Shown: positions 2,351 to 56,802 of the stretch, one piece after another
Numbering within the stretch: the first letter of the stretch is position 1
Layout: each line of letters starts with the position of its first letter
Notes under the pieces: generated by a model
The model's database searches: none
Told to the model about the DNA's origin: nothing
Seen by the model: the letters and a program-made list of their open reading frames with translations, nothing else
Assembly: GCA_016432405.1 (NCBI GenBank)
Contig: CP066687.1
Span: forward strand, 347,040 to 411,039
DNA length: 64,000 bases
From: Candidatus Giovannonibacteria bacterium
GTDB lineage: Bacteria > Patescibacteriota > Minisyncoccia > UBA11713 > 2-01-FULL-45-33
Reading direction: 5' to 3'
Translations under genes and position numbers: made by a program

Positions 2351-2436
2351 TATAACAATTCTGCTCGATCGGAAGAAAGTGTTATACAGTTTAGATTACT
2401 TGCAAGGATATAAAATAAAAATAAAAAAAGCTCCAT
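2347..2436 (-). CDS. Putative 29-aa hydrophobic peptide MELFLFLFYILASNLNCITLSSDRAELLY (or truncated orphan)
   Basis: Own promoter TGGACA-16-TATGAT and SD AAGGAGGGCT; absent from the ORF track. Confidence 0.4.
   Translation of the reverse strand: MELFLFLFYILASNLNCITLSSDRAELLY
2352..2385. promoter_or_regulatory. 34-bp palindromic site downstream of PaaX-like gene 1
   Basis: ATAACAATTCTGCT-CGATCG-GAAGAAAGTGTTAT, 27/34 identical to 1781-1814. Confidence 0.75.
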
Positions 2437-2515
2437 TTTGTTTTCAGCCCTCCTTTCTCTGCTCGCCATCATAGCAATTGCTTAAAATTTGTCCATAGCG
2501 TGCTATAATATTCTC

Positions 2516-3685
2516 ATGCTTTCATGGATTTTTGGGCACAAAAAAAAGACGACGCACATCTTGGCGATTGACTTGGGAACAGCATCAATTTCCGCCGCGG
2601 TCGTCGTGCGCCATGAAAAAGCCGGACCGAACGCCCCGGCCGGGCTCTGCGAGATTAAAAAAGTTTTGAGGCATCCCTTAAACCTTTTGGGCTACCAGCT
2701 TGCCGCGGACGCCGGCAAGCTCCCTTATATTTTAAAAGACGGCTTCATGAAAGTTTTTAAAGACGCTTATGCCGCCTCCCGCCACGCAGACGTTATTTTA
2801 ATCGCGCTTTCCGAGCCGTTTTTTTTGGATAAGAAAACGCAAAGAGAAGAGGCGCGCCCTAACCCGTCTAAGCCGATCAGTCGAGCCGAGATTGACACCA
2901 TCGGAAAATTTTTAAGCGAAGACGTTTTGGTGGCAAACAGGCGGCTCGCGCCGGTCGGGCGGAATATTCTTGCCATGCGAGTGAACGGATACGACATCGT
3001 CGACGCAATCGGGTATAAAGGCAAAACGTTGGGGGCCGAGGCCGTGTTTACTTTAGTGAGCGCGACTTTGAAAGATTACGTAGATGAAGCGAAAGAAAAA
3101 TTTTTCCCCCGGAGCGCGGTTTCTTTTTCTTCCGATACCTGGGTTCTATGGAAGCTGCTAAAATCCACGGAGAATTTGTCCGGTCCGGTTTTGGTTGTGG
3201 ACATCGGCGGAGAAGTGACCGGAGTGTTTGGAGCCGGCAAAAACACGATTGAGCACATGGGCGCCGCCGCTTTCGGCATAAGGACTCTCGCCAGGCGCAT
3301 CGGGGCGGCGCTAAAAATTGGGCCAGAGGAGGTTGAGCCGATTTTGCGCAAGTATACTGCCGGCGCGCTGGATGAGCGTTTGAAAATGAAGGTGGACAGG
3401 GTTTTATCTGCGGCGCTTTTTGATTGGTGGGCAAGCATTAAAAATTTCGCGAGCGCGCCGGCGGCGTTTAAAAAAATATTGCTTTCCGGAGGCGGGGCTG
3501 ACTTCTCCGTTTTCTCCGATTTTCTGAAAGATTGCCTGAAAAAGGATTATGGCGCGGATGTGTCTGTGGAGCTCTTGCGCGCGGAGGCGTTCAATGATTT
3601 TTTGGACCCGGCCGGCGCGCTCTCCGGCGGCGGCGACGTTATTTTAGCGGCTTTGAGCATTTTTGCTGATGCCAAGACAGACTAA
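2516..3685 (+). CDS. FtsA/actin-like ATPase-fold protein
   Basis: LAIDLGT, VVDIGGEVT, ILLSGGGA motifs. Confidence 0.75.
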   Translation: MLSWIFGHKKKTTHILAIDLGTASISAAVVVRHEKAGPNAPAGLCEIKKVLRHPLNLLGYQLAADAGKLPYILKDGFMKVFKDAYAASRHADVILIALSEPFFLDKKTQREEARPNPSKPISRAEIDTIGKFLSEDVLVANRRLAPVGRNILAMRVNGYDIVDAIGYKGKTLGAEAVFTLVSATLKDYVDEAKEKFFPRSAVSFSSDTWVLWKLLKSTENLSGPVLVVDIGGEVTGVFGAGKNTIEHMGAAAFGIRTLARRIGAALKIGPEEVEPILRKYTAGALDERLKMKVDRVLSAALFDWWASIKNFASAPAAFKKILLSGGGADFSVFSDFLKDCLKKDYGADVSVELLRAEAFNDFLDPAGALSGGGDVILAALSIFADAKTD

Positions 3686-4979
3686 AGAAAGTTTTATAGA
3701 CATTCTCCCCTCAAGCGGCAAGCGCGTGATTTCGGATGTTGTGATTGCGCCAAGAAAAGAAATTACTTCTCAGTTTTTCAAAGAGCCACCGGCGGCGATC
3801 AAGCCCCCGAAGCGCTATTTGAGGACGGGACGCAGGGGCAGGTCCGTTTTTACGATTTTGGCGCTGCTTGCGCTGGCTGCCGTCTTGAGCGCGGTTTTCG
3901 GGAAAGTTGAAGTGACGGTAACCCCGAAAGCGTTGTCTGTCCAAATGGACAAAACTTTGCCGTTGAGCAAATCCCGGGACGGCTTGCCTGACGGCAGCGC
4001 GGGCAATTTTCTGATTTTCAGGACTCTCACGCTGCCGCATAAGGAGAGCGGTTCATTTAACGCCACGGAAGAGAAATTCCAGGACCGGAAAGCGCAGGGT
4101 ATAGTCGCCCTTTTTAACAAATCTAAGGCGCCCCAGATTCTTATCGCTTCCACGCGCCTTGAGGCGCCGGACGGCAGAATTTATCGGATTCCAAAAACTA
4201 TAGTCGTGCCCGGTGCCAAGACACAGGGCGGGCAGGCGGTGCCCGGTTCGCTGGATGTGACGGTAATTGCGGACAAGGCGGGCGCGGAATACAATATCGG
4301 GCTCTCGGATTTTACTTTGCCCGGTTTTAAAGATTCTCCCAAATACGAACTCGTCTTTGCAAGGTCCAAAGCCGAAATATCCGGCGGAGCAAGCGGAAAA
4401 CAAATTGTGGTGGGCAAATCGGACACGGATTCCGCTCTGACGGCACTTATGCTGCGAGTGCGCGAGGCCGCGCCTAAACTTATTTCCGGAAAAATACCAA
4501 AGGAAGAATTTTTAATTGCGGAGTCGGTTGAATATGCAGCCGCCAAAGAGGGTTCGGACCCCGCCCCGGGTTCGCCGGCGGAAAAATTTGATTTCAGCGC
4601 GGAAGGAGAAATCAGGGGGGCAAGCGTTGAAAGGCGGGCTTTAGAGGAGGCGCTTTTGAAGAATTTGCCCGAACTTGCGGCGCTCGAGGGAGCTCCGGTG
4701 CGCGTAAAAAATCTGGACAAACTGCCGATGAAATTAATCGGCTATAAATTTGAAGCGCGCAGTTTTACGCTGGCCGTCCGCGGCACGGCGGAGATTGAGG
4801 CGGTTGTGGACACCCAGACGCTAAAAAGCGCGATTTTGGAGCATGGCGTCAGGGGCGCGATTCTGCGGTTTTCCGCTTTGCCATCAATATCCGGAGTGGA
4901 GGCGCGTTTTAAGCCCTTTTGGTGGCGCAAGACCCCCTCCGACCCCAGCCGCATTGACATTATTTTACAAGGGAGCTAA
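3669..4979 (+). CDS. Membrane-anchored protein with baseplate-J-like region (CPR conserved hypothetical)
   Basis: N-terminal TM; KAQGIVALFN, ADKAGAEYNIG, ISGGAS motifs. Confidence 0.55.
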   Translation: MPRQTKESFIDILPSSGKRVISDVVIAPRKEITSQFFKEPPAAIKPPKRYLRTGRRGRSVFTILALLALAAVLSAVFGKVEVTVTPKALSVQMDKTLPLSKSRDGLPDGSAGNFLIFRTLTLPHKESGSFNATEEKFQDRKAQGIVALFNKSKAPQILIASTRLEAPDGRIYRIPKTIVVPGAKTQGGQAVPGSLDVTVIADKAGAEYNIGLSDFTLPGFKDSPKYELVFARSKAEISGGASGKQIVVGKSDTDSALTALMLRVREAAPKLISGKIPKEEFLIAESVEYAAAKEGSDPAPGSPAEKFDFSAEGEIRGASVERRALEEALLKNLPELAALEGAPVRVKNLDKLPMKLIGYKFEARSFTLAVRGTAEIEAVVDTQTLKSAILEHGVRGAILRFSALPSISGVEARFKPFWWRKTPSDPSRIDIILQGS

Positions 4980-5000
4980 GATAGGGACTATTCGTTGTTA

Positions 5001-5222
5001 ATGCCAGCTTCGCCAAAAGACAAACTTATTAAAGAAGGGCAGGTTATTGAAGCGTTGCCTTCGGCGACGTTCCGTATTTTATTGGGAGACGGCAAGGAAG
5101 TCATTGGGCACCTGTCGGGCAAGATGCGCGTCCATTACATCAAAGTGCTGGTCGGCGACCGCGTTTTGGTTGAATTCAGTCCTTACGACGAATCCAGGGG
5201 ACGAATTGTTAAAAGGTTATAA
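5001..5222 (+). CDS. infA: Translation initiation factor IF-1
   Basis: [25 protein letters not shown]. Confidence 0.97.
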
Positions 5223-5248
5223 TTATTTATATTGAGCGAAATCAAAAT

Positions 5249-5362
5249 ATGAAAGTAAGGGCTTCGGTAAAACCAAGGTGCGCGAGCTGCAAGGTCGTCC
5301 GCAGGGGCGGCAGAGTTTTTATCGTCTGCAAAAATCCGAGGCATAAGCAGAGGCAGGGTTAA
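5249..5362 (+). CDS. rpmJ: 50S ribosomal protein L36 (absent from the ORF track)
   Basis: Manual translation [37 protein letters not shown]. Confidence 0.97.
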
Positions 5363-5380
5363 ATACTTAAAGATTTAAAG

Positions 5381-5767
5381 ATGGTCAGAATCGCAGGGGT
5401 TAATATCCCGGACAATAAAAAAATTCCCGTTTCTCTCGCCTACATTTACGGCATAGGGAGGCCATTGGCGCGCCGCATTTTGTCTTCCGTGAAAATTGAC
5501 GAAAATAAGCGCGCCAAAGAACTGGCCCCGCAGGAAATAAGCAAACTCCGCGACCTAATTGAAAAAAAATATAAAATTGAGGGGGAACTAAGGCGGGAAG
5601 TCACCTTAAACATTAAAAGGTTAAAAGACATAAAATCCTACAGGGGCGTCCGGCATATGAGAAATCTCCCCGTCCGCGGCCAGCGCACAAAAACAAATTC
5701 CCGCACCCGGAGAGGCAACGTCCGCAAAACAATGATGTCCGGCAAACGCAAACTGGAAAAGAAATAA
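5381..5767 (+). CDS. rpsM: 30S ribosomal protein S13
   Basis: MVRIAGVNIP, LPVRGQRTKTNSRT. Confidence 0.98.
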   Translation: MVRIAGVNIPDNKKIPVSLAYIYGIGRPLARRILSSVKIDENKRAKELAPQEISKLRDLIEKKYKIEGELRREVTLNIKRLKDIKSYRGVRHMRNLPVRGQRTKTNSRTRRGNVRKTMMSGKRKLEKK

Positions 5768-5768
5768 A

Positions 5769-6802: not shown

Positions 6803-6825
6803 CAGCTAATTTTTTGCTTAATTTT

Positions 6826-7737: not shown

Positions 7738-7749
7738 AAAATAAACGCG

Positions 7750-8094: not shown

Positions 8095-8098
8095 AAAT

Positions 8099-8940: not shown

Positions 8941-8973
8941 AAATAAAATGGCCCCGTCGTCCGCGACGGGGCC
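8941..8973 (-). terminator. Intrinsic terminator of the minus-strand orphan ORF
   Basis: GC hairpin GGCCCCGTCG/CGACGGGCC with a U-rich tail on the minus strand. Confidence 0.6.
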
Positions 8974-8976
8974 TGC

Positions 8977-9195
8977 TCAATTTTGCGAAGATAGGATGAC
9001 GTTGGGGACTATTTTCCAGGTTAGGTTGTAAGTAATACGACACTCAGATTTTTGGCCACCAACTTCAATTGTTCGTTGCGACCAGTGTGGTGTGATATGA
9101 CCCCTCTTTTCGTCGTCGCAAACGAAGATAACATCTCCAATTTTTAAAACTTCTTCGCAACCTTGAGCGGGTTCTATTTGTGCCTTTTTAGCCAT
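8977..9195 (-). CDS. Orphan hypothetical protein (72 aa)
   Basis: SD GAGGAGGGCT, promoter TTGACA-18-CATAAT, own terminator. Confidence 0.65.
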   Translation of the reverse strand: MAKKAQIEPAQGCEEVLKIGDVIFVCDDEKRGHITPHWSQRTIEVGGQKSECRITYNLTWKIVPNVILSSQN

Positions 9196-9299
9196 AATAG
9201 AGCCCTCCTCTCTGTTTCCATTATGAGCAGATAAAGAAGAGCTTGTCAACGATTACAAAATAAAAAAAGAGGGGCGGCAGTTGCCATCCCCCTATGCAT

Positions 9300-9686
9300 T
9301 CAGACCCAGTACCGTTCTGCAGACTTCTGGACACGCCGACTTGCTTCTGCGGTTTTGCGCTCACAGAGCACCTTAAAGTTGCGCTGAACTCTTGCTATGG
9401 CGTTTTCGCTCACCTCGCCACCCGCCTTTCGGCAGATCTCCATCATTTGCGCTAGCACCACGTCCGCGATTTCCCTAGGCCATTGTTTAGGCCGGATTGC
9501 TAGAGCAACATGGCTTGACAGGTTTTTCTTTTCCACCTGTCTAACGCAGAGATCCACTTCATGCGCGCTGCTTATCCGCCCCAATATGTGCCTGCATTCC
9601 TCGGGCGTAGTAAGTTCGCGCATAACGATGAAAACCGTCCCGCTTTCATCTGCCGGGTCCATCCATACTTCAACTTTTTTCCCCAT
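9300..9686 (-). CDS. Orphan hypothetical protein (128 aa)
   Basis: SD AAAGGAGGAG; hairpin downstream at about 9270-9292. Confidence 0.65.
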   Translation of the reverse strand: MGKKVEVWMDPADESGTVFIVMRELTTPEECRHILGRISSAHEVDLCVRQVEKKNLSSHVALAIRPKQWPREIADVVLAQMMEICRKAGGEVSENAIARVQRNFKVLCERKTAEASRRVQKSAERYWV

Positions 9687-9702
9687 AGCTGTCTCTCCTC
9701 CT

Positions 9703-9924
9703 TTAGTTTAATGTCGGTATGTCGATGAATTGTTTCAAGAGCTCGGGATTCTTGCGCACATTCTTCTTAGCGAGAAGAGCGGACTTGGCAACTTGGTCAA
9801 GAATATTGCAAAGCCGATCTTTGTCCAAGCCAGCCGCCTCTTTTTCGGTAAGCCCGCGAAGTCGGAGTACATAAGACCCGGGTTCTTTTGGATGCGGAAC
9901 AAAACAAAGTTCATGGCAGTCCAT
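9703..9924 (-). CDS. Orphan hypothetical protein (73 aa)
   Basis: SD AAAGGAGGG; promoter TTGACT-17-TAAGCT. Confidence 0.65.
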   Translation of the reverse strand: MDCHELCFVPHPKEPGSYVLRLRGLTEKEAAGLDKDRLCNILDQVAKSALLAKKNVRKNPELLKQFIDIPTLN

Positions 9925-9993
9925 AAAACCCTCCTTTCTGGAGCTTAAAGCCCCTCTGATATCAGCTTATGCCGGAAAATCAAAAAAGTCAAG

Positions 9994-15041: not shown

Positions 15042-15121
15042 ATTTGATAATTCTACACGATTTTTGCGGCCCTTGCAATATCTAGGCGGACGTGCTAAAC
15101 CGAGGTTAGGAGGACCTTTTT

Positions 15122-15925
15122 ATGAAAGCAAAAAATGTGCGGAGCACCGATGTTTTTCAGGTTATCGTTGTTATCGTTTTAACCCTGTTGGTCCTGTTCG
15201 GCGTTTCCTGTGTCCCTGCGGCAACGGTGAGAAGGACAAGCGTTTCCCAGCCCTTGCCTCCGGAACCCGCTCCTGGACAGCCGGGAGCTACGGCGCCGGC
15301 TTATGCTGGCAGGAAAGCCACTATTTCAATGGCGCCTGTGGAAGGCATTAATCTTATCCCGGTGAAGTGGGGCGGGGTAGGGGTTGCCCCGGAAATCAAT
15401 TCCGTATTTGAAAGCGCTCTTGCTGACACCGGACGCTTCCGGACCGTCAGCAGGGAAAAAATTAAAAATGTCCTTGCCGAGCAAGACCTGGCAACCGCAG
15501 GAAGAGTGCGACAAAGCACGGCTGTAAAAACCGGTGAGATCACGGGGTCAGACCTCATGATTATCGCAAAGATTACCGGCTTTGACCCGGGAGATTCAGG
15601 GGTAGGCGCGGCGGTCGGCGCTGTCGGCAGGACTTTGGGAGGTTGGATCGGCGCTTTGGGAGTATTGGCTGGAGGGATTAAAACTTCTAGTCTTGTTATG
15701 GACGTCCAGGTTATGGACGTCCGCACGTCGGAGATAGTTGTCTCCACGACCGTGGAGGGAAGTTCCGTTGACTGGTCAGCCGGAGGAGCGTTCGTTGGCC
15801 GTTCTCTTGGCGCGGGCGTTGCCGGGTGGAAGAACACGCCAATGGAGAAAAATCTGCGCGTTGTGGTGGAAAAAGCCGCCGCGGAGGTTTCCGCTAAACT
15901 TCCGCCGGAGTATTTCAAGCACTAG
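15122..15925 (+). CDS. CsgG/HfaB-family lipoprotein-like protein
   Basis: Signal with GVSC, TGRFRTVSRE..VLAEQDL, IIAKITGFD; SD AGGAGG. Confidence 0.8.
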   Translation: MKAKNVRSTDVFQVIVVIVLTLLVLFGVSCVPAATVRRTSVSQPLPPEPAPGQPGATAPAYAGRKATISMAPVEGINLIPVKWGGVGVAPEINSVFESALADTGRFRTVSREKIKNVLAEQDLATAGRVRQSTAVKTGEITGSDLMIIAKITGFDPGDSGVGAAVGAVGRTLGGWIGALGVLAGGIKTSSLVMDVQVMDVRTSEIVVSTTVEGSSVDWSAGGAFVGRSLGAGVAGWKNTPMEKNLRVVVEKAAAEVSAKLPPEYFKH

Positions 15926-15941
15926 CCGGTTATCCGGCGCG

Positions 15942-15969
15942 AGCCCCTTGATTTTCAGGGGCTTTTTTT
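15942..15969 (+). terminator. Intrinsic terminator
   Basis: AGCCCCTTGA-TTT-TCAGGGGCT followed by a T run. Confidence 0.8.
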
Positions 15970-16019
15970 GTTAGGATTTAGGAAGGGTACAACTAATCAA
16001 AAACGAACGGAGGAATCAT

Positions 16020-17180
16020 ATGAGAATATTACTTACGGGTGTAACTGGCCTTGTGGGGTCTTGTTTAGCCCCGCTATTGCAAGAAAACAACGAAGTTTTG
16101 TGTTTAATCCGACCTGACCGCCAAAAAGACGCTCATGCCCGCCTTGTGGAAACGCTGCCTTTCTCGAAAAAGAATATCATGGCTATAAACGGCGACGTGA
16201 CCCTGCCCAAAGCCGGAATGAAATCGGCTGATATAGATAGATGGAAAGGGAAAATAGACAAGATTGTCCACGGAGCGGCTTCAATAAGGTTTGACGAGCC
16301 GCTTTCGGATGAGACAAAACGTGTCAACGTTGGCGGGACGCAAACTATGCTTGACCTTGCGAGAGAATTGGAGGTAAAAGAGTTTCATTTTCTTAGCACC
16401 GTATACGTTGCGGGCAGCGCGCGATCTTTTACGGAAAATGACTTTGATGTGGGGCAGACAACCCGCAACGCATATGAAAAATCGAAGCTTGAAGCCGAGC
16501 GTCTCGTCAGGAATTGGAACGGCGGGAAGTTTTCCGTCCACCGCATGAGCATCGTAATCGGCGATGCAACGAGTGGCTACGTTAAAGAATTCAACGGTTA
16601 TTACGGCTTTTTTGTCGGATTTTGGCGGTTGCGCAACAGCTTGTATGAGCGGTGGTTAACTGGGGGGAAAGACAGGTTAATTCGTCAGGGAATAAGCTTT
16701 GACGAGGAAGGGTTCTTGGAATTGCCGCTTAGCATCGACTGTTCGCCGGTCTCGAAACTGAATTTGGTGAATTCCAACTGGCTGGCAAGGATCTTGAATA
16801 AATTAATCAGCCTGTCGGCTGCGAATCAGACATTTCATTTAGTGCATCCCTCCCCGCCGAGAGTCCAGTGGGTTATCGAGGTTTCTTTAGATTATCTGAA
16901 GATCCGCGGGATACAATATCGGGATGGCAACAGCGCGGCTAGCCAAATGCTGAGAAGGATGCAGAGGGCTCTTGACCGGAAAATCAACCGGTATTTGCCC
17001 TATGTCACGCATGAGCCGATTTTCGGAAGAGACAATCTTCTCCGAACACTCGGGGAATCATATGTTTCTGCTCCGGCTATCAGCGAATCAATGTTGCAAC
17101 GTATGCTGGACTACGCTATTAAGGTCAATTTCGGCCAAAAGAATAAGGAAACCAGCGAATCTGTACGCCGCATCGCCTGA
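16020..17180 (+). CDS. Extended SDR / fatty-acyl (thioester) reductase-like NAD-binding protein
   Basis: TGVTGLVG, IVHGAA, YEKSK; SD GGAGG. Confidence 0.85.
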   Translation: MRILLTGVTGLVGSCLAPLLQENNEVLCLIRPDRQKDAHARLVETLPFSKKNIMAINGDVTLPKAGMKSADIDRWKGKIDKIVHGAASIRFDEPLSDETKRVNVGGTQTMLDLARELEVKEFHFLSTVYVAGSARSFTENDFDVGQTTRNAYEKSKLEAERLVRNWNGGKFSVHRMSIVIGDATSGYVKEFNGYYGFFVGFWRLRNSLYERWLTGGKDRLIRQGISFDEEGFLELPLSIDCSPVSKLNLVNSNWLARILNKLISLSAANQTFHLVHPSPPRVQWVIEVSLDYLKIRGIQYRDGNSAASQMLRRMQRALDRKINRYLPYVTHEPIFGRDNLLRTLGESYVSAPAISESMLQRMLDYAIKVNFGQKNKETSESVRRIA

Positions 17181-17243
17181 ATGCGGCTTTTTTTTATGCA
17201 CGCCGGCTGTTATAATTAGTCTAATCGCTTGTAAAGAATAAAA

Positions 17244-23272: not shown

Positions 23273-23395
23273 TATCAAAAAACCCTTATAAAATAAGGGT
23301 TTTTGAGGGCTTGACTTTATATCTAAACGGGTGTATAATAAAAGCAGGAAAACGGAATGTGCGCGAAAATCAACGCTCGCAAAAAAGGAGGATTT

Positions 23396-23806
23396 ATGTT
23401 CGCAAAATATCTACCGGTCATTGGGTGTGTCGGTATCGGGGTGTTCGTTGCAACTTTAGTAATCTGGAACCCACTTAGCCGCTTTTTTAAAGAAACCACT
23501 CAAACTCGGGAACAGTTCGCCACCGAGCTCGCCGAAACCAATCGGCAGGCCGATGTGGCAAGTCAGCTTCGGGCGGCGGAGAGAGGCGATTTGATCAAGA
23601 TGAGAAACGGTGCAGTTGCAGCTGTTTGGCGTGAGGTCAAAGAAGAATCCATACTTCTCGCTTGGGGAAGTTGCAATGAAAGCATGACTGAATATCCGTT
23701 GGATTTGCTTTCACGGCGCGCTGATGAGGTGATGAAGTATTACCCCCCGTCGCCTAAGTACGCGGAAGTAGCGGCTATTTATATACGCTGCGAGCGGGTA
23801 AAGTAG
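23396..23806 (+). CDS. Orphan membrane-anchored protein
   Basis: Promoter TTGACT-17-TATAAT, SD AAGGAGG, N-terminal TM, hairpin downstream. Confidence 0.7.
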   Translation: MFAKYLPVIGCVGIGVFVATLVIWNPLSRFFKETTQTREQFATELAETNRQADVASQLRAAERGDLIKMRNGAVAAVWREVKEESILLAWGSCNESMTEYPLDLLSRRADEVMKYYPPSPKYAEVAAIYIRCERVK

Positions 23807-23896
23807 TTTTAAGGCCGGTTCTTTGCGGAGATTCTATAAAAAGAGTCTTCGCGAGGGCCGGCTGTTTTTTATTCTAAAAATTGTTAAACTAAAATT

Positions 23897-31657: not shown

Positions 31658-32842
31658 ATGCGAACCTCCTACTCCGCGCTGGCGACGTACCAGCAATGCC
31701 CGCAGAAGTTTAAATTTGAAGTAATAGACAAAATAAAAGCGCCAAAGTCGCCGGAGGCGCTTTTTGGAAGTTCCATGCATGGGGCGCTTAAATTTATGTT
31801 TTCGCGCGACCCTCTGTTCCCCACCCTAGACGAGGTTTTAATTAATTTTTCCGAGAATTGGAAAAATGCCGCAGCCAAAGCGTCCAAATCCTTGGCATCA
31901 GAACTCGCGAAAATCTACGACGAAAGCGGGCGGAAGATGCTCAAAGAGTTTTTTAAATCAAACCCGCCGTGGAATTTCTCCGTCGTGGACACGGAATCAC
32001 GCTTTGAGGTTTTACTGTCGGACACCCAGACCCAGGAAACTCATATTTTGGCCGGCATCATAGACCGGATTGATAAAATCGGCGACGGCGAATATGAAAT
32101 TATAGATTATAAAACGAATAGAAAGCTCCCATCGCAGGAGGCGGCCGACCGGAATCTACAGATGTCGCTTTACCATATGGCGCTTACGCGCAGATGGCCA
32201 AGCATTTCTCCGGATAAAATCAAGCTCTCGCTTTATTTTTTAAAACACGACGAAAAAATATCTTCAAAAAGATCCGCGGAAAATTTAAAGACCACGAGGG
32301 ATTCCGTTTTAAAAACAATCAGGCAGATAAGCCAAAGCCAGGCGCAAGATAACTTCCCCACCATTGTCTCCAAGCTTTGCGACTGGTGCCCCTATAAGCC
32401 GATTTGTCCGGCCTGGAGGCATTTATATGAAAAAACAGAATACCCTGCTCCAGATGAGGCAGCATTGCAGAGCGCGCTTAGGGAATATTTTACAATCAAA
32501 GAAACGGACAATAAAAACGCGGCGCGCGTTAAAGAATTGCAAGAGATTATAAAAACCTATATGGATGCCCAGAAGATTGACCGCGTTTTTGACGAACGCG
32601 GATATTATATTTCAAAAAAACTTCAACAGAGGTTTAAATATGATTTTGACAAGGTAAAAGAAATTTTAACCGCCGCTGGTTTGGAAAGCGCGTGGCAGAG
32701 CATATTGGAAGCGGACGATAAAAAACTAAAGATAATTCTTAAAACCCTCTCCCCCGCCCTCCGTGCCCAGATTGAATCGCAAAAGATTTTAGCAAAAGAA
32801 TTTATCGTTTTAACTCCCTCATCAAAGCCGGCGAAAAAATAA
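31658..32842 (+). CDS. PD-(D/E)XK RecB/AddB-family nuclease
   Basis: SYS..YQQCP, GIIDRID, IIDYKT, CDWCPYKPIC. Confidence 0.9.
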   Translation: MRTSYSALATYQQCPQKFKFEVIDKIKAPKSPEALFGSSMHGALKFMFSRDPLFPTLDEVLINFSENWKNAAAKASKSLASELAKIYDESGRKMLKEFFKSNPPWNFSVVDTESRFEVLLSDTQTQETHILAGIIDRIDKIGDGEYEIIDYKTNRKLPSQEAADRNLQMSLYHMALTRRWPSISPDKIKLSLYFLKHDEKISSKRSAENLKTTRDSVLKTIRQISQSQAQDNFPTIVSKLCDWCPYKPICPAWRHLYEKTEYPAPDEAALQSALREYFTIKETDNKNAARVKELQEIIKTYMDAQKIDRVFDERGYYISKKLQQRFKYDFDKVKEILTAAGLESAWQSILEADDKKLKIILKTLSPALRAQIESQKILAKEFIVLTPSSKPAKK

Positions 32843-32851
32843 AAAGGAGGG

Positions 32852-33358
32852 TCAGAACCCTCCTCCAGTGTTCAAATATACCTCAACTGCGGACGCATGA
32901 CTCCCAACTACAAATAAAACGTCTCCGATGCTGAATGCCATAGTTGGGTCTCGCAATTGCAATATATCCCCCAAAAACCGTAGCTTGGTTTTTTCATTAA
33001 TTGGTGCGTACCGCTCTTGTTCAATCGGATCGGCTGTTTCAAATACTCTAGCAGGAGTAGGCATTTTCATGCCATTCAATACAATTATCAAGTAATTAAA
33101 TAGCACGCCAGCCGAAGTTAAAAAGGCAGATACCCTGATTTCGTCAAAAAATATCCCTAATCCGAGAAACGCGGCCGCAAGAAGGATTTTTCTGGCCTTC
33201 CTGCTTTCTATAAGATCCCCGAGCAGATATACTGCGGCCCCAACCGGCGCAATCAATAGGATATTGCCGATTTTTATGGACAACACATACAGTGTTGATA
33301 TGCAAAAAACAGCAAAACCAAACTCTAGAATTTTTCGTATAACCAACTTTTCCGACAT
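32852..33358 (-). CDS. DUF5317-like membrane protein
   Basis: NGMKMP, LRFLGD, FSIGDVL; SD TAAGGAGGGCT. Confidence 0.65.
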   Translation of the reverse strand: MSEKLVIRKILEFGFAVFCISTLYVLSIKIGNILLIAPVGAAVYLLGDLIESRKARKILLAAAFLGLGIFFDEIRVSAFLTSAGVLFNYLIIVLNGMKMPTPARVFETADPIEQERYAPINEKTKLRFLGDILQLRDPTMAFSIGDVLFVVGSHASAVEVYLNTGGGF

Positions 33359-33445
33359 TTGTTAGCCCTCCTTATTCGGAATTCGGGTTTCTTTACATAG
33401 CTAAGCATATGAACAATAGATTGTCAACAAGATGTGGTACTACCC

Positions 33446-33481: not shown

Positions 33482-33562
33482 GACGATAAAAAATTAAAAA
33501 AGAATTTACGGTGTTGACTTCTTCTACAAGGCCTGTAAACTTGGGATAGAAAGGAGAGTTCA

Positions 33563-34432
33563 ATGAAAATTCTTTTACACGAGGATATTCCTCGCTGGTA
33601 TAGCTTTGAATGGCAGGACAAGCCACCGCGAATACTTGTGTCGATTCACAAACGTTTCTTGGAGCATCTGCGGCCTTATCCAGATGGAGATAGCACCATT
33701 GAGCATCTCAAAGAAGAATTCGGTTTTACAAAGTTTGACTGGAGTTTCCGAAAAGGTTTTGGGTTTGACGACGCGATACGGCTCGTCAAAGATGAAGAAT
33801 TTAAAGTTTTTGAGGCAAGGTTGCCGAAAGTGTTTCAACTGACCGATAAGGTTTGTCGAAATTGTGAAGGCACTGGGCGCGATGAGCTCCGTGGCGGAAA
33901 GTGTCTTTATTGCGAAGGGAAGAAAAAAGAGCACGATTATGTTTGGACTCCAGCTTTCGCTGTTTCGTGCAGCTTGAACCTTTTTCTTGACTCCGCCTAT
34001 TACTTCCAAGAATCTTCTGGAACACCCAAAAAACAGCTTCTGTGCGTCCAATTGCATACTGCTCATGGTATGCATGGTGGAGAGTTGAGCGGTGTATATA
34101 GTCCTTCATTGGTGGAATGGCTTAGAGCGCACCGAGGCCGTATTCCAGAGATGGAAGATGCGATGCGTAGAGCATACGTTAGAATGCTTAGGGCTGATTA
34201 TCTGGATAACTTAAGCTTTATAGCTTCAGTAGAAAACGATAAAGGTTGGCTCAATGTCTCGTGCCCCGGAAGCGCCTGCGGGTTACATCCAACGGATCAT
34301 TTTATGCGCGACGGATATGGTTTTCAATTCAGCTCCCATAACGTGGACACGCCCGCCCAACAATTGACATTGCTAGCAGGGCTGGCGGCTCTCTATAATA
34401 AAGTTGATCAAGATCTCAAGGCAGGGCGCTAA
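33563..34432 (+). CDS. Orphan protein with DnaJ-type Zn-finger motif
   Basis: CRNCEGTG...CLYCEG; promoter TTGACT-16-TAAACT, SD AAAGGAG. Confidence 0.7.
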   Translation: MKILLHEDIPRWYSFEWQDKPPRILVSIHKRFLEHLRPYPDGDSTIEHLKEEFGFTKFDWSFRKGFGFDDAIRLVKDEEFKVFEARLPKVFQLTDKVCRNCEGTGRDELRGGKCLYCEGKKKEHDYVWTPAFAVSCSLNLFLDSAYYFQESSGTPKKQLLCVQLHTAHGMHGGELSGVYSPSLVEWLRAHRGRIPEMEDAMRRAYVRMLRADYLDNLSFIASVENDKGWLNVSCPGSACGLHPTDHFMRDGYGFQFSSHNVDTPAQQLTLLAGLAALYNKVDQDLKAGR

Positions 34433-34475
34433 CGCCTTGCTTTTATTTTTAATTGATGATAAGTTATTAACTAAT

Positions 34476-42147: not shown

Positions 42148-42295
42148 AGTATTAAAAAACTGTTATAAATAAGGGTTTTTGGACCTTTACCGCCTTTGGC
42201 GCGGCTTTAAGCCATCTTAGCACAATTTACGAATAAATAAGCGTGAGTTATTCACAAGCGGCTTCAAAATTGCTAGGATTGAAATTAACAAATTT

Positions 42296-42501
42296 GGGTG
42301 TGTAGTTCAGTGGTAGAACGCTGTCCTGACCTGCCCGCCGAACAAACCAAAATTTTGGATGCGTAGTTCAGTGGTAGAACGCTGTCCTGATAAGACAGAG
42401 GTCGGAGGTTCGATCCCTCCCGCATCCATAATCCAAAATTTTGGGTCGGCTTTGGCAGGCGGGTAAGACAGAGGTCCCAGGTTCGATCCCTGGCACACCC
42501 A
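42296..42501 (+). tRNA. Outer tRNA-Ile(GAU) split in the anticodon by a 134-nt insert (42330-42463)
   Basis: 5' half GGGTGTG...CTGTCCTGA, 3' half TAAGACAG...CACACCCA; all stems pair. Confidence 0.85.
42357..42428 (+). tRNA. Inner intact tRNA-Ile(GAU)
   Basis: GGATGCG/CGCATCC acceptor, CTGTC-CT-GAT-AA-GACAG. Confidence 0.93.
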
Positions 42502-43399
42502 TAAAATAAAAGCACTTTTTCTTTTGTCCCGGGTCTCGAATTGAAGCTTCCGAGACCAACGCTTCACGTCAAAAATGACGCGATCGACACTTTAATTGTT
42601 GGACGCTCCGACGAAAAGTCGGAGTTGAGTACAAAAATTAAAATTGAAACTCCACGACCAGCTTCCGCTAGCCGTGCCTTGTTACGACTTACTCCCTGTC
42701 ATCCCGCCATCCTTATTCCCCGCTAAGCGGGACTTTTGGGTCGGCGGGACTTCCTTGAGTTGACGGGCGGTGAGTACAAGACTCGAGAACGTATTCACCG
42801 CAGTATAGCTGACCTGCGATTACTAGCGATTCCGTCTTCATGCGCTCGAGTTGCAGAGCGCAATCCGAACTGGGCCGGCCTTTGGTGAGATTAGCTCCGC
42901 CTCGCGGCTTCGCGACTCATTGTGGACGGCATTGTAGCACGTGTGTAGCCCAGGGCATCAAAGGGCCATGCTGACTTGGCGTCATCCCCGCCTTCCTCCC
43001 CGCGGTGCGGGGCAGTCTCTTGTGACACTTGTAACACAAAATAGGGGTTGCGTTCGTTGCCCCACTTAAGGGAACAGCTCAAGCCACGAACTGACGACAG
43101 CCATGCAGCACCTGTCCCGACGTCCTTGTGAGACGCACGCCTTTCGGCGGGCTTATCGTCGGGATTTCAAGCCCTGGTGAGGTTTTTCGTTTAACATCGA
43201 ATTGAACCACATGCTCCACCGCTTGTGCGAGTCCCCGTCTATTCCTTTGAGTTTTAAACTTGCGTTCGTACTTCCCAGGCGGATGACTTAACGCGTTAGC
43301 TTCGCCACTCGAAGGGTCGATACTTCCAATGGCTAGTCATCATCGTTTAGGGCGTGGACTACAAGGGTATCTACAAATTTGTTACAACTCAATTTTACT

Positions 43400-43680
43400 A
43401 ATCGGTGCTAATTTTTGGAGTCAAGATTGGTGCTTGACAAATAAATTTTTATATGCTATGCTTGATATGGAGGTGATTTATGCTTGTATGGATTTGTGAG
43501 AAAACCGGGCCGCAAGGTTTAGCCCGACTTGTCTACAAAGAGTTCCTCGCGTGGATGCTCCTTGCGTCTTTGCTTGGTCAGGTTTATCTTTTGCTCCGGT
43601 AGAACCGAGGATCAAGCGATAAGAGGGAATGGAATTAAACGCTATTCCCTCTTTTTTATTTCCAAAAATTAGCACCGATT
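43400..43680 (+). mobile_element. Inverted-repeat-bounded expression cassette (MITE-like) within the intron
   Basis: Perfect 20-bp TIR AATCGGTGCTAATTTTTGGA/TCCAAAAATTAGCACCGATT enclosing promoter, SD, ORF and terminator. Confidence 0.75.
43480..43602 (+). CDS. 40-aa peptide with hydrophobic C-terminal half, antisense to the rRNA
   Basis: MLVWICEKTGPQGLARLVYKEFLAWMLLASLLGQVYLLLR; TTGACA-17-TATGCT, SD GGAGGTGA, terminator 43621-43657. Confidence 0.65.
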   Translation: MLVWICEKTGPQGLARLVYKEFLAWMLLASLLGQVYLLLR

Positions 43681-44715
43681 TTTTCTTGAGTGAGCAGAAT
43701 ATTTCTATCTGCTTCTGCATATCGCTATGCAGTTCGGACTATATCATGTCGCCTTTTCGGCGACCTCGGCGTATAGTCTCTACGGGGTCATGTCCGAAAC
43801 TAAGTGTCGGACAGCGGACTTCCCTCGGGATTGTCCTCCGACGCTTCGGCCGGAGGGGTTTCCCCGATATAGCTCCGACGAAAACCTCTCGGTTTTGTCG
43901 GAGTCCGACTTCACTATTAAAATAAATAGTGCGTCGGACCAAGTTTTTTATCCTCGGAATTTATTCCGAGGGGACTAAGCTGCCTTGTAAACAGCATTTG
44001 TTAATCCTTTTTGATCCCCACGCTTTCGTGTTTCAGGGTCAGGAATGCCCCAGCAAGCTGCCTTCGCCTTTGGTGTTCCCCACGATATCAACGGATTTCA
44101 CCCCTACACCGTGAGTTCCGCTTGCCTCTGGCATCCTCCTAGTTTTGCCGTTTCCCGCCCATCTCTCCGGTTAAGCCGGAGTTTTTAAAACGGGACTAAC
44201 AAAACCCCCTACACACCCTTTACGCCCAGTAAATCCGGATAACGCTCGGGCTCCTCGTATTACCGCGGCTGCTGGCACGAGGTTAGCAAGCCCTTATTCT
44301 TAGGGTACAGTCATTTTTTTCCTCCCTTAAAAAAGCAGTTTACGCCCCGAAGGGCTTCCTCCTGCACGCGGCGTCGCTCGATCAGGCTTTCGCCCATTGT
44401 CGAATATTCTCGGCTGCTGCCACCCGTAGGTGTATGGACCGTTCTCAGTTCCATTGGTGGGGGCCAAGCTCTCACTCCCCCTAGCCGTCGTCGCCTTGGT
44501 GGGCCATTACCCCGCCAACAAGCTGATAGCCCGCAGGCCTCTCCCAGAGCCAATCTAAGTGTTTTAATCTCACGATACTATCGGGAATTAGCTCCGCTTT
44601 CGCGGAGTTATGCCCGTCTCTGGGGTGAGTTCCTACGTGTTACTACCCCGTCTGCCACTATCCCGCACCTTTTATTGCTAAAGGGTGCGGGACCGTATGA
44701 CTTGCATGCCTTATC

Positions 44716-44755
<40 letters not shown>

Positions 44756-45058
44756 AATAAGAAAAATTTCTTGCGAAATTTTTCTACTACGGGACAAAAG
44801 AAAAAATGCTCAAAATTTAACTGACTTAATTTTTTGGTGCAATTTTCTAAATTTTCAAGGTTCTCTTTTTGGGTCAAAACTCCTCAACAGGGCTCGGAGT
44901 AAATAAACCCGCGATAAGACCCCAAAGATCCTATCGCGGATTTACTATGCTAATTTTTCAAAATAGATTCAAAATAGATTAAAAGGTATCTGTGCCTCCG
45001 GCCATCTCAATATAAGTTAACCTATAATAATTCCATTATACTCGCCTAAAAAACGCCG

Positions 45059-50701: not shown

Positions 50702-50702
50702 G

Positions 50703-53770: not shown

Positions 53771-54156
53771 TTAATTTTTCTGGACTCTAAAAGTTTTTCG
53801 TAATATCTGTCCGCCAGCGTGTCGTGAAATTCATCCAGAATATGCGGATTTTTCAACGCCTGCGCGACTTTCATGGCCGAAGCCATCCCTTTGGTGAGCG
53901 CGAGCTCCACCAGAGAATCAATTATTTCGGCGTGCTCTTTTTCCTGCAGCTCATACGCTTTTTGCTTAGCATCATCGTCCGCAAGCTGGCTTTGCTGAAG
54001 CGGTGTTGGCGATTTTGACCCGGCGGCGTCTTTTATGACTTCTCTAAAAATCTCTTTTTCGTGCTTTTGCTCACCGCTTCCGGCCAGCTCCCTTTTTTTG
54101 GCCTCCAGCCGCTCTTCAAGCAATTTTATTTCCTCGTGTAACCATGATTCAGGCAT
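53767..54156 (-). CDS. Hypothetical protein coupled to the ATPase
   Basis: Overlaps the ATPase start; NPHILDEFHD. Confidence 0.7.
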   Translation of the reverse strand: MPESWLHEEIKLLEERLEAKKRELAGSGEQKHEKEIFREVIKDAAGSKSPTPLQQSQLADDDAKQKAYELQEKEHAEIIDSLVELALTKGMASAMKVAQALKNPHILDEFHDTLADRYYEKLLESRKIK

Positions 54157-54186
54157 AATGAAATAATAACATGTTATAATAATTTT

Positions 54187-55782
54187 ATGAAAAACCACTG
54201 GGTTTTAGTGTTGTTGATATTGGCCTTGGCAGCGTTTTTCCGTTTTTGGGATTTAAAGAGCGCCCCGCCGGGGCTTTGGGCGGATGAGGCAGTAAATGGC
54301 GTCAACGCGCTGCGGGTTATTGAAACTAATCCGCCAGCTGGCGGATGGAAAGTTTTTTATCCGGAAAATTTCGGCCGCGAAGGCCTTTTTATAAACATTC
54401 AATCCGTTTTTGTAAAATCATTCGGCACCGAGCCGTGGGTATTGCGCTTGCCGTCGGCGATATTTGGAGTATTAACTATTTTAGGACTATATTTAATGAC
54501 TTTGGAATTGTTTAGGAATTCGAAATTAGAAATTGAAAATTCTCATGGCGAGTTCATTGCTTTGGCATCATCATTATTTCTCGCCACGAGCTTTTGGCAT
54601 ATTAATTTCTCGCGGATAGGATTCCGCGCGATTATGGCGCCGTTTTTTTTGGTGTGGAGTTTTTATTTTTTACTAAAAGGAACGTCGAGACGTCCGACGT
54701 CCTATGGACGTCGGACGTCCATAATTATTCTCGCCGGCTTCACTTTCGGCCTTGGCTTCCATTCATATATCGCTTATCGCATCGCGCCGGTAATTGCGCT
54801 GTTACCGCTGTGGAAATTTTACAAAAACTGGAAAAATCAGGAAGCCGGACTTCCACTTGGAAGTCCGGCTTCCAAGTACTGCGCTCCGTGCTTTATTGGA
54901 CTTTTTATTTTCGCCGCTTTCATCGCCTCGCTCCCCCTTCTTTGGTATTACGTCCAAAATCCGCAGGATTTTTTGGGGCGGACGGCGGCGATTTCAATTT
55001 TTGACGCTCCCAGCCCGCTCGGACAATTTTCAGAAAATCTTATAAAAACGCTGGGGATGTTCAATATCGCTGGCGATTTCAACTGGCGGCACAATCTCAC
55101 CGGCTCTCCGCAGCTTTGGTGGCCAGTGGGAATTTTATTTTTAATCGGCATATGGAAATCGCTTAAAAAATTACAGTGGCCATATAGTTTTGTGTTGCTG
55201 TGGTTTATAACGATGCTTTTGCCGGTTGCCGTTTCCAATGAATCTTTGCCGCACGCGCTCCGCGCGATTATTTTAATTCCGCCAGCGATGATTTTCGCCG
55301 CCTTGGGGCTAAATTGGCTTTGGGAAAATGTCAAGCCGCAGTTCAGGATTTTTATTTATATTTTTTTGGCCACCGCCGTGCTTCAGGCCTACAGCCAGTA
55401 TTTTTTACACTGGGCGCCGAATTTCAACGTTCATCAGGCATTTCAGACAGAAATTACCGAAAAGGCACGCTGGCTTAAGGCAGAGCCCAAAGACATAAAA
55501 AAATACGTCGTTACCGACGCGGTTGACCAAGCGGACACAACCGGCACGCCGATGTCCTTTCAGCCGATAGTTTTTATCACGGACACCTTTTATTCGCAGA
55601 AACAGGCGGAGAAAAATATTTATTATATTTCTTTAAAGAATCTTGATTACGCGGATTGTTCCCAAAAATGCGAGTTTCTGCCCGTGGAATACCGCCCAGC
55701 TATTTTTAAAACAATCAAACAAAAAATCCCGGGCTTGCGCTTAGACGCCTCTTCGGGATTTGTGGTATTAAAAAATTATTGA
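54187..55782 (+). CDS. ArnT/PMT-like GT-C glycosyltransferase
   Basis: PPGLWADEA, LRLPSA, WHINFSR; many TMs. Confidence 0.85.
   Translation: MKNHWVLVLLILALAAFFRFWDLKSAPPGLWADEAVNGVNALRVIETNPPAGGWKVFYPENFGREGLFINIQSVFVKSFGTEPWVLRLPSAIFGVLTILGLYLMTLELFRNSKLEIENSHGEFIALASSLFLATSFWHINFSRIGFRAIMAPFFLVWSFYFLLKGTSRRPTSYGRRTSIIILAGFTFGLGFHSYIAYRIAPVIALLPLWKFYKNWKNQEAGLPLGSPASKYCAPCFIGLFIFAAFIASLPLLWYYVQNPQDFLGRTAAISIFDAPSPLGQFSENLIKTLGMFNIAGDFNWRHNLTGSPQLWWPVGILFLIGIWKSLKKLQWPYSFVLLWFITMLLPVAVSNESLPHALRAIILIPPAMIFAALGLNWLWENVKPQFRIFIYIFLATAVLQAYSQYFLHWAPNFNVHQAFQTEITEKARWLKAEPKDIKKYVVTDAVDQADTTGTPMSFQPIVFITDTFYSQKQAEKNIYYISLKNLDYADCSQKCEFLPVEYRPAIFKTIKQKIPGLRLDASSGFVVLKNY
54689..54719. repeat. GACGTC-family palindrome; identical copy at 58054-58084
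   Basis: GACGTCCGACGTCC-TAT-GGACGTCGGACGTC. Confidence 0.9.
54840..54873. repeat. Palindrome in frame in the glycosyltransferase
   Basis: GGAAGCCGGACTTCCA-CT-TGGAAGTCCGGCTTCC. Confidence 0.88.
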
Positions 55783-55784
55783 AC

Positions 55785-55818
55785 TATACAAGTACTCACG
55801 ATCGTATAAATTTGTATA
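55785..55818. promoter_or_regulatory. 34-bp palindromic site downstream of PaaX-like gene 3
   Basis: TATACAAGTACTCA-CGATCG-TATAAATTTGTATA. Confidence 0.75.
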
Positions 55819-55825
55819 GACGCAT

Positions 55826-56347
55826 CTATTTAGTATTTATAGTGCCCTTATTTTGTACCGTGAAAATATGAATGTTGGACATTAAGTTCATCTCTTCTAA
55901 ATTTTCTAAGAATTCCTGAGGTAACGGTCGCTCCCCCATCCATACACTTTTTTGTAAAGGCTTAAAATCGTAGGCAACTAGTTCTATTCTTAACCAATCG
56001 CGCTTTCTTCGCTCGCGCTCTGGAACGTCAAATATTACAATCCTTAAAATGCCGTCTTTTTTGGGCAAATCAAATGCGTTATCCGTTTTTGTGTTTTTGA
56101 TAAATTTTTTACCCAAATTCGTTATTCCCCACGTGTTATTTTTTCTTTCCACCAAGCCTTGTTTTTGCAATCTGGTCAAAATAACGGAAAAGGTTTGACG
56201 TTTAAATTGATAGTTTGAATCCAGCCCTAAAAGTTGCCTCCAGGCTCTTGCTTGCGGATACTTTTTTGGAAAAAAAGAATCCAGAGTCGCAAAACCTAAG
56301 TCGCCGATGGTTTTTAGGGTCAATTTAGTAAGATTTAGTTTTTTCAT
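55826..56347 (-). CDS. PaaX-like regulator (wHTH plus Cas2-like), copy 3
   Basis: LTRLQKQGLV, ITNLG, RIVIFDVPERERRKRDWLR..LQKSVW. Confidence 0.85.
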   Translation of the reverse strand: MKKLNLTKLTLKTIGDLGFATLDSFFPKKYPQARAWRQLLGLDSNYQFKRQTFSVILTRLQKQGLVERKNNTWGITNLGKKFIKNTKTDNAFDLPKKDGILRIVIFDVPERERRKRDWLRIELVAYDFKPLQKSVWMGERPLPQEFLENLEEMNLMSNIHIFTVQNKGTINTK

Positions 56348-56376
56348 GTTTCAATATTGTTCCAATACTACCATAC

Positions 56377-56410
56377 TATACACTTTTACACGATCGTTGG
56401 AATTTGTATA
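56377..56410. promoter_or_regulatory. 34-bp palindromic site upstream of PaaX-like gene 3
   Basis: TATACACTTTTACA-CGATCG-TTGGAATTTGTATA; 28/36 identical to the downstream site including flanking bases. Confidence 0.75.
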
Positions 56411-56424
56411 GACCATTGTGAATT

Positions 56425-56802
56425 AATCCGGTACTAATTTTCGGAGTCAAGGATTGGTGCTTGACAGGCTAAAATTAGATATGGTAAACTTCAACAAGAA
56501 TAAGGAGGGAAGGAGGGCTAGAGTATGATAGAGATAACAGAGTGTAAGGATAGCATAATCATTATTTCTTGGCATCCAGGACACTTTACAGCAAACGAGG
56601 GCGCACAGCATGACCGTATCAGAGATTTAATGAGGAGGGGCTATAGACTGATTTCCAACGGAGTAACGTCTGAAGGAGCTATCACGTTACAAGCAATTCC
56701 TCCTGTTACCAAAGACTGAAGAATGATATGTCCTGCATCCGTACAGATGGCGCATCGCTTTTATAGATGCGCTATTTCTTTTTCCAAAAATTAGCGCTAT
56801 TT
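56425..56802 (+). mobile_element. Second copy of the TIR-bounded cassette frame, with different cargo
   Basis: About 40 bp nearly identical to 43400-43439; right end TCCAAAAATTAGC. Confidence 0.7.
56525..56719 (+). CDS. Orphan 64-aa protein (cassette cargo)
   Basis: TTGACA-18-TAAACT, tandem SD TAAGGAGGGAAGGAGGGCT, hairpin plus T tract at about 56748-56782. Confidence 0.7.
   Translation: MIEITECKDSIIIISWHPGHFTANEGAQHDRIRDLMRRGYRLISNGVTSEGAITLQAIPPVTKD

Follow-up and report, generated by a model that had tools for sequence, protein, structure and literature searches.

The genome of this Candidatus Giovannonibacteria bacterium carries two gene-expression grammars, that of a core free of Shine-Dalgarno (SD) motifs and that of a class of small accessory genes led by strong ones, in a cell whose 16S ribosomal RNA (rRNA) has no anti-SD. 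The stretch analysed here (the window) is 64,000 nucleotides (nt) long and covers positions 347040-411039 of a single-contig genome of 651,549 bp that is rated 100% complete; homologues of its proteins place the genome among the Patescibacteria, and the sequencing runs that hold it are groundwater metagenomes. The SD-led genes, called cassettes below, form a class that is genome-wide, old and maintained. On balance, we think it somewhat probable that these cassettes are delivered to a host cell, as DNA or as mRNA, and translated by its ribosomes.

That some Parcubacteria have lost the anti-SD has already been published. In the part of that study available to us, an anti-SD-less subgroup that also lacks ribosomal protein uL1 is described, the motif is present in 48% of Parcubacteria, and no SD helix is believed to form (Tsurumaki et al. 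2022, PMC9297842). The present genome resembles this subgroup in both respects, with a 16S that lacks CCTCCT and no uL1 (PF00687 was not found in the genome, as against 14/14 controls). The same available text describes neither an SD-led gene class nor a leaderless core, and the SD-cassette class appears to be new. The premise of the earlier note on this DNA, that the 16S has no anti-SD, stands: the 16S ends in a U-rich 3' tail without CCUCC. A second rrs gene with a canonical tail, which the note had named as a refutation, was not found: universal 16S anchors occur once in 651,549 bp, and with 100 N at the contig end a hidden copy is not strictly excluded. Contigs from two runs, from which the assembly may itself derive, cross the 16S tail with no differences. 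Thirty loci fetched from relatives gave 27 readable 16S tails; all seven from the same family (7/7) lack the anti-SD, and among the 20 from other families it is present in 8 and missing in 12. Beside the 16S end, partial tRNA-Ile-like duplications flank the tRNA-Ile gene (window 42285-42480), with a weak variant joint there in one run.

Genes were called with a purpose-written hexamer-based caller that has no SD term; it gave 714 genes, and every gene count rests on it. An SD was scored as AGGAG, GGAGG or GAGGTG at 5-13 nt from the ATG, a rule that marks 97/733 genes, 78 of them called blind and 19 being extra intergenic open reading frames (ORFs). Among the 714 SD-blind starts, AGGAG occurs 41 times at 5-10 nt upstream as against 19 times at 12-35 nt (p=7e-16), and the SD-to-ATG spacing is tight, at 5-10 nt in 164/178. 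Internal in-frame ATGs pass the rule in 64/2359 cases (2.7%), and at this chance rate roughly 80 of the 97 SD genes would be real. At a Pfam cut-off of 1e-5, 77/97 SD genes belong to no family, compared with 17/75 SD-less controls (150 of the 636 SD-less genes were drawn at random, and the first 75 along the genome were used); at a length of 100-300 aa the figures are 38/51 and 4/42 (p=1e-10).

The relation between the SD and gene class was followed through nine genomes, using partial or near-whole sequence per genome; since these genomes are kin and not independent, the counts are descriptions and not tests across lineages. The present genome is labelled G000, G001 is a congener with a median identity of 86% and no assembled 16S, G017 is of another genus of the same family, and G029, G044, G021 and G037 are the anti-SD-positive relatives sampled. 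Conserved genes carry an SD in 5/263, 4/168, 5/236, 0/47 and 3/59 cases in G000 and four others for which no intact anti-SD was shown, and in 4/240 across the four anti-SD-intact genomes; core genes do without an SD both where the anti-SD is lost and where it is kept. For genes without homologues the counts are 47/175, 16/103, 38/173, 6/39 and 1/49 in the same five genomes (G000 first) and 12/94, 3/34, 6/95 and 1/50 in the anti-SD-positive ones, or 22/273 pooled in the latter as against 85/348 in G000 and G017. Because of these counts, the SD class is seen as richest where the anti-SD is missing and as uneven across lineages. An equal SD frequency in core and accessory genes, another refutation offered by the earlier note, is thus not what G000 holds. 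The note's statement that strong motifs are confined to accessory genes is right in that the SD genes are accessory, but most genes without homologues carry no SD.

The two classes also differ in the layout of their transcription units. The promoter pattern TTGAC[AT]-N16-18-TANNNT precedes 40/76 SD genes and 14/289 others in G000, and 22/47 and 15/244, respectively, in G017, while terminators follow 63/72 SD orphans as against 47/120 sampled others. In 87/287 SD-less unit-opening genes, and never in SD genes, the ATG follows a -10 box at a distance of 6-9 nt, the layout of a leaderless mRNA; it occurs in 141 SD-less genes of the genome and was seen also in all eight relatives sampled, and within the window the unit-first genes at 2516, 14310, 31658, 36470, 41112 and 56820 have this look. 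Many core transcripts are apparently leaderless. Orphan cassettes are dispersed over all 13 bins of 50 kb, and their G+C content (GC) is native (0.486 in SD genes vs 0.483 in shared genes). Codon usage is flatter in SD genes than in core genes, and A6/T6 runs are half as many at equal GC, a difference seen in each of three genomes of the family and missing from G029. Neither leaderless core genes, nor the cassette class, nor host translation of genes from the candidate phyla radiation (CPR) was found described in the literature searched, from which most subscription journals and bioRxiv supplements fell outside, and a term search of the accessible text of PMC10746230 and PMC12641178 gave nothing on SD use.

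In the window, all 11 starts listed in the earlier note (2436, 9195, 9686, 9924, 15122, 16020, 23396, 33358, 33563, 43480 and 56525) are ATG codons with a GGAG-core SD 5-13 nt upstream (Table 1), and their duplexes with a canonical 16S tail range from -9.0 to -14.7 kcal/mol. Those at 2436, 9195, 9686, 9924 and 33358 lie on the minus strand. The extended motif AGGAGGGCT is shared by 2436, 9195, 33358 and 56525 as reported, and the housekeeping leaders are SD-less, those of rpsM, hrcA, dnaK, mraY, dnaB and rpmA by failing the SD rule and that of rpmJ by its A/T-rich appearance to the eye. The weakest of the 11 is 2436, with merely 29 codons and a 13-nt spacing. Their description as orphans holds for 8/11 and fails for 15122 (CsgG), 16020 (NAD_binding_4) and 33358 (DUF5317), which have families. 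As to self-contained units, the scan gives a good promoter at 7/11, the promoters of 9195, 15122 and 33358 look imperfect on visual inspection, and 9686 comes second in the 9924-9686 unit; a terminator was called for 10/11, in keeping with the note.

Table 1. Features of the window discussed in the text (window positions)
Feature	Position	Strand	Details
Cassette	2347..2495	-	Promoter 2495-2468, SD 2453, 29-codon ORF 2436-2347; possibly a remnant
Orphan cassette	8945..9195	-	72-aa ORF 9195-8977, SD 9208, strong terminator 8986-8945
Two-gene cassette	9262..9992	-	Promoter 9992-9964, ORFs 9924-9703 (73 aa) and 9686-9300 (128 aa), an SD each, terminator 9293-9262
CsgG/HfaB-family cassette	15060..15955	+	ORF 15122-15925, SD 15109, terminator 15914-15955
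NAD_binding_4 (SDR) cassette	15948..17195	+	Promoter 15948-15977, SD 16009, ORF 16020-17180, terminator 17166-17195
Orphan cassette	23311..23870	+	Promoter 23311-23339, SD 23387, 136-aa ORF 23396-23806, terminator
DUF5317 cassette	32841..33371	-	ORF 33358-32852, SD 33371, terminator 32865-32841
Zinc-finger cassette	33514..34444	+	Promoter 33514-33541, SD 33553, 289-aa ORF 33563-34432 with CxxCxGxG zinc finger, terminator
16S rRNA gene, only copy found	42640..44761	-	Intact helix 45, then U-rich tail (about 42635-42650) without anti-SD
Group I intron-like insertion in 16S gene	43372..44001	-	Rfam Intron_gpI match 43715-43937, below gathering score; carries the antisense cassette at 43480
Antisense cassette in 16S intron	43434..43657	+	TTGACA-17-TATGCT promoter, SD 43469, 40-aa ORF 43480-43602, terminator 43621-43657
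Orphan cassette	56461..56780	+	Promoter 56461-56490, SD 56512, 64-aa ORF 56525-56719, terminator

The SD is kept, and not decaying, among CPR orthologues. Five syntenic G000-G017 pairs retain it at 30-68% protein identity, and it appears to be held under selection inside a family that lacks the anti-SD. G001 shares 22 SD genes, of which 14 keep the SD, including 9/11 of those without a Pfam family; these nine pairs have ratios of nonsynonymous to synonymous substitution (dN/dS) of 0.15-0.39, with some synonymous distances >1.5. Within the window, the G001 orthologue of 9195 (64% identity, dN/dS 0.31) keeps its SD, and the syntenic orthologue of 23396 (73%, dN/dS 0.39) retains it in a rewritten leader. 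In G017, whose tail was shown to lack the anti-SD, five of seven shared Pfam-less SD genes keep it. At genome position 175068 the SD register shifts between orthologues from a 5'-extended to a 3'-extended form. The five syntenic loci suggest that cassette families have been diversifying with the SD intact inside anti-SD-less clades.

Similar retention is seen in families followed across the Patescibacteria. The zinc-finger family of 33563 has 130 homologues, and among the 120 listed all 8 that are named are Patescibacteria; it was found in 11/201 class genomes, weak matches included, and its Atlas search was a non-result with a best value of only 0.78. Of 81 loci examined, less 11 that were cut and 4 duplicates, 47/66 carry an SD at 32-46% identity, as against 0/67 for their conserved neighbours. 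A second family, of 211 aa, has 73 loci, of which 65 are labelled Patescibacteria, 5 are unnamed and 3 are labelled Gammaproteobacteria or Bathyarchaeia; an SD is present in 51/66 readable leaders. Those three (L133, L136 and L146; 52-68% identity) sit on short contigs, reflecting either misbinning or real transfer into possible hosts. The DUF5317 gene has an SD in 4/5 distant Paceibacteria homologues, and in one family members from distant lineages share 80-90% identity.

Retention goes together with a rapid exchange of whole cassettes. Compared with G001, 44 resolved slots hold the same gene in 16 cases, another SD gene in 4 and nothing in 24; compared with G017, the corresponding numbers for 41 slots are 8, 12 and 21. 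In two slots the promoter stays while the payload is swapped within its class: a barrel for a distant barrel (28% identity), and the CsgG protein of 15122 for another lipoprotein, the equivalent promoter in G001 driving a different SD-led lipoprotein gene. A phage origin of the cassettes was considered and is not supported, since PHROGs matched 4/69 proteins and three viral-contig scans gave none, none and one weak match. Unrelated cassettes share an upstream element, some 30 nt long, whose inverted repeat overlaps the -35 box (window 43390-43440 and 56435-56466, genome 477097) and may trace cassette insertion; the upstream regions of 56525 and 43480 resemble each other. The 23S group I intron, like that of the 16S, also carries an antisense promoter-SD-ORF cassette of 40 codons (genome 312360, L049:6363-6482).

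What could read these motifs is indicated by their own variation. SD-led leaders pair at -12.7 kcal/mol with a canonical tail and at -2.5 kcal/mol with the first 12 nt of the cell's own tail. At SD-blind starts, an extension to GAAAGGAG is seen in 12/44 of the GGAG sites without the fifth G, compared with 5/81 GGAGG sites (p=0.002), and internal-ATG controls do so in 1/194; SD-informed starts give the same 5' compensation (19/37 vs 13/104), the SD-blind version being preferred. GAAAGGAG is the complement of the tail CCUCCUUUC, which was seen in eight anti-SD-positive relatives. The tail CCUCCUUUC is common to many other bacteria, E. coli not among them.

The payload would need machinery that the cell appears to lack. 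In the Atlas, the SD gene at genome 300577, outside the window, is similar to clusters of Gcw_chp and MipA (0.96-0.97), and Gcw_chp is matched by 35/122 of its homologues; a signal peptide was judged by eye. Its protein is predicted by AlphaFold2 to form a 12-stranded barrel with a predicted local distance difference test (pLDDT) score of 97 from a 122-row alignment; this model was used, the single-sequence fold reaching a pLDDT of 32. This protein had no match by sequence among solved structures, and its model is closest to the porins KdgM, GalP and NanC (Z 16.3-17.1; for KdgM Z 17.1, root-mean-square deviation 2.4, 165 residues aligned). The barrel family is present in 9/301 class genomes, with a C-terminal Phe in 7/8 Paceibacteria homologues. 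Omp85/BamA was not found in G000 or in five relatives, four of them barrel carriers; Lgt was not found in G000 or ten family members and is present in 25/151 class genomes; and LspA was not found in G000. The CsgG protein of 15122 has a predicted lipoprotein signal with cysteine 30, seen by eye and missed by the strict lipobox rule, which across three family genomes matches 2/208 SD genes and 0/1637 others. Further SD genes encode a cold-shock-domain protein and a second sigma-70 (genome 138204-139235, L039:2204-3232), which stands beside an SD-less housekeeping sigma, is SD-led also in G017, and is a candidate host-reprogramming factor. A cluster of SD-led thymidylate kinase-like, ThyA, HIT and dCMP deaminase genes lies at genome 194321-197209 (L042:7321-10209), and the corresponding G017 slot holds two different SD-led genes.

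These observations can be brought together if the cassettes, about 80 dispersed units of fast turnover, each with a -35/-10 promoter, a short SD leader, one or two ORFs and a terminator, were genes addressed to a diderm bacterial host and translated by its ribosomes after transfer of DNA or mRNA. The reader of the SD would be a 16S tail ending in CCUCCUUUC and hence, we infer, that of a foreign ribosome. The predicted envelope products, the 12-stranded porin and the lipoproteins, would be finished by the host's β-barrel assembly machinery (BAM) and Lgt/LspA and would open the host for nutrient uptake, while the second sigma-70, the cold-shock-domain proteins, the deoxythymidine triphosphate (dTTP) enzymes and the small orphans may retune the host in the manner of phage early genes. 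A candidate route is the CPR type IV secretion system, mostly relaxase-less in the accessible part of 10.1101/2025.01.22.634366, with no relaxase search having been made here. Delivery as DNA, to which the separate promoter class of the cassettes points, is possible though doubtful when taken singly, and delivery as mRNA slightly more doubtful. The suggestion in the earlier note that the modules are tuned for another ribosome gains from SD variants that follow the canonical 16S tail and from a payload that needs BamA or Lgt/LspA, neither of which was found; this support is indirect.

A number of points weigh against translation by a host. A -35 box is used by the cell's polymerase too, at the promoter of the 16S gene. 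The 5' compensation is one-sided, a 3' extension showing none (8/42 vs 7/39), and since the canonical tail occurs also in anti-SD-positive Paceibacteria (8/20 of the other-family tails), the pairing signature cannot tell a host from kin. Pairing of the SD within the cassette mRNA slightly exceeds that in shuffled sequences (0.56 vs 0.43, p=0.03, n=55), which gives no suggestion of selection for exposure. Only 4/8 barrel homologues pass the strict SD rule, and the genome's own barrel has seven residues after its last Phe. The SD-led ThyA is the only thymidylate synthase found (no ThyX) and could serve the cell itself. Among SD genes with a G017 homologue at sufficient coverage only 6/14 share the SD, and most of the misses look like chance matches on housekeeping genes. 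The SD class is nearly absent in G037 (1/50) and G039 (1/49), and not significant in G021 and G044; over all nine samples, significance is lacking in four. Finally, no signal of single-stranded DNA (ssDNA) promoters was seen, nor any extra avoidance of palindromes or restriction sites in the cassettes.

Several of these points would sit well with a substitute for the anti-SD inside the cell, such as captured host 30S subunits or 16S fragments, a trans RNA or a motif-reading protein, with expression gated by contact with the host. Captured host subunits would explain SD selection and the pairing signature equally well, the cell itself might use the ThyA cluster, and its polymerase is able to read -35/-10 promoters. 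We nevertheless consider such a substitute unlikely: CsrA was not found in the genome, no intergenic trans RNA bearing an anti-SD was found in G000 (the single 8-nt intergenic match is the antisense of an SD site), the porin and lipoproteins would be left without BamA, Lgt or LspA, and a separate promoter class is not predicted. A displaced CUCC about 30 nt into the cell's own 16S tail was also tried as the reader and rejected, as G017, G002 and G012 do not share it. Quite unlikely, in our estimate, is that the cassettes are passengers of a Patescibacteria-wide mobile pool, their SDs selected in anti-SD-intact relatives or in phages and their translation here SD-independent. Fast turnover, the family with closely similar members in distant lineages and the matching tail kept by eight sampled relatives are what a mobile pool would produce, but syntenic retention across genera, saturated synonymous sites and rewritten leaders are not; moreover, the anti-SD-positive samples are the poorer in SD genes and their conserved genes are SD-free, the viral scans and PHROGs gave little, and the porin stays unexplained.

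The motif might instead owe its conservation to a place in folded regulatory leaders rather than to ribosome binding, an idea to which the slight excess of pairing over shuffles lends itself, as does the 211-aa family (genome 48417; L033:15050-15190 minus; L078-L150), whose conserved three-stem leader ends just before the SD and shows compensatory change in 14/26 consensus pairs (20 sequences). Since the SD lies outside the consensus stems of that leader, CTCC or CCTC occurs upstream in merely 7/96 leaders, the spacing is tight and the variants follow the 16S tail, we hold this to be very improbable. That leader is possibly an undescribed cis-regulatory RNA, and the flanks of the SD-led genes at genome 8774 and 22420 look similar to it. 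Equally faint is the prospect of a recent import from SD-using non-CPR donors with signals still undecayed, which the earlier note had offered as one of its two inferences. The flatter codon usage and the 3/73 loci of the 211-aa family with Gammaproteobacteria or Bathyarchaeia labels speak for it; however, all other named homologues are from Patescibacteria, the identity of CsgG relatives drops from 58-89% (unnamed) to 38%, the best plasmid matches of the 16020 protein are <30% identical, GC is native, and the orthologues are old and under purifying selection, with SDs kept at syntenic loci across genera at saturated synonymous distances. The near-identical non-CPR matches that the note had listed among its refuting results are missing too, the 90% clusters of 10 tested proteins holding no named non-CPR member. 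Recent import is largely refuted for the families tested, the test of non-CPR near-identity and GC covering about a dozen of the 97 proteins. The 46 tRNAs found in the genome mean that tRNA gaps cannot discriminate between readings; tRNA-Ile(TAT) and tRNA-Arg(GCG), encoded at genome 610967-611040 and 600985-601058, respectively, would bypass lysidine and inosine modification.

Genes that the cassettes call to mind are known from other systems. Phage morons and early genes combine a stand-alone sigma-70 promoter, an SD, a small ORF and an intrinsic terminator with rapid turnover. The cassettes share the promoter, SD and intrinsic terminator, but sit singly between core genes of a cellular chromosome, with 65/69 lacking a PHROG family and with a signal foreign to the carrier's ribosome. 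The T-DNA of Agrobacterium comprises bacterial genes with host expression signals, sent to a eukaryote as one bordered, relaxase-processed segment; the cassettes are proposed likewise to carry a host's signals for the host's machinery, but are dispersed and have a bacterium as their putative target. In Bacteroidetes, as far as the available part of the study goes, the anti-SD is sequestered, translation is SD-free and an SD marks bS21/bS18 autoregulation (Jha et al. 2020, PMC7797042). An SD-less majority with a strongly SD-led minority is common to both cases, but the present genome has lost the anti-SD, its SDs lead some 80 accessory cassettes, and its bS21-like gene (genome 171461-171676) is not among the 97 SD genes. 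The accessible account of plasmid leading regions (Samuel et al. 2024, PMC11541004) offers a parallel in small genes meant for another cell beside conjugation-type machinery. The likeness drawn in the earlier note fails in that the cassettes are scattered, and appears to fail also in that no ssDNA-promoter signal was seen: the DNA around their promoters folds less strongly than that around promoters of core genes (-10.75 vs -12.5 kcal/mol, a crude test of Frpo-like promoters). In addition, no anti-defence annotation was found among the cassettes. As for the Patescibacteria themselves, VirB4 is reported in 2,417/3,035 genomes and relaxases in 103 (Quinonero-Coronel et al., 10.1101/2025.01.22.634366, seen in part); VirB4-, VirD4-, PrgI- and pilin-like genes are present here as well, but the accessible part of 10.1101/2025.01.22.634366 names no substrate and no host-expressed genes.

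The cassettes bear on the ways in which CPR bacteria use their hosts and on the cargo of the near-universal type IV secretion system of these bacteria. An SD kept under selection in a cell apparently unable to read it, together with products that need machinery not found in this cell, points to a genetic and not protein-only manipulation between bacteria. We see an evenly balanced case for the wider proposal that the genomes of many Patescibacteria, as cellular parasites, have a second, phage-like layer, in which about a tenth of the genes would be written in the expression language of the host, delivered as DNA or mRNA through the relaxase-less type IV secretion system and made by host ribosomes, installing porins and lipoproteins and reprogramming the host. 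Should translation by the host fail as an explanation, the anomaly stands and would imply a novel way of reading SD sites. The combination of promoter, SD and terminator provides a simple tag by which CPR orphan genes can be sorted into a list of candidate effectors, and, if the cassettes are indeed host-addressed, the SD would single out the effector genes of any CPR genome, and variants of the motif would report the 16S tail of the host.

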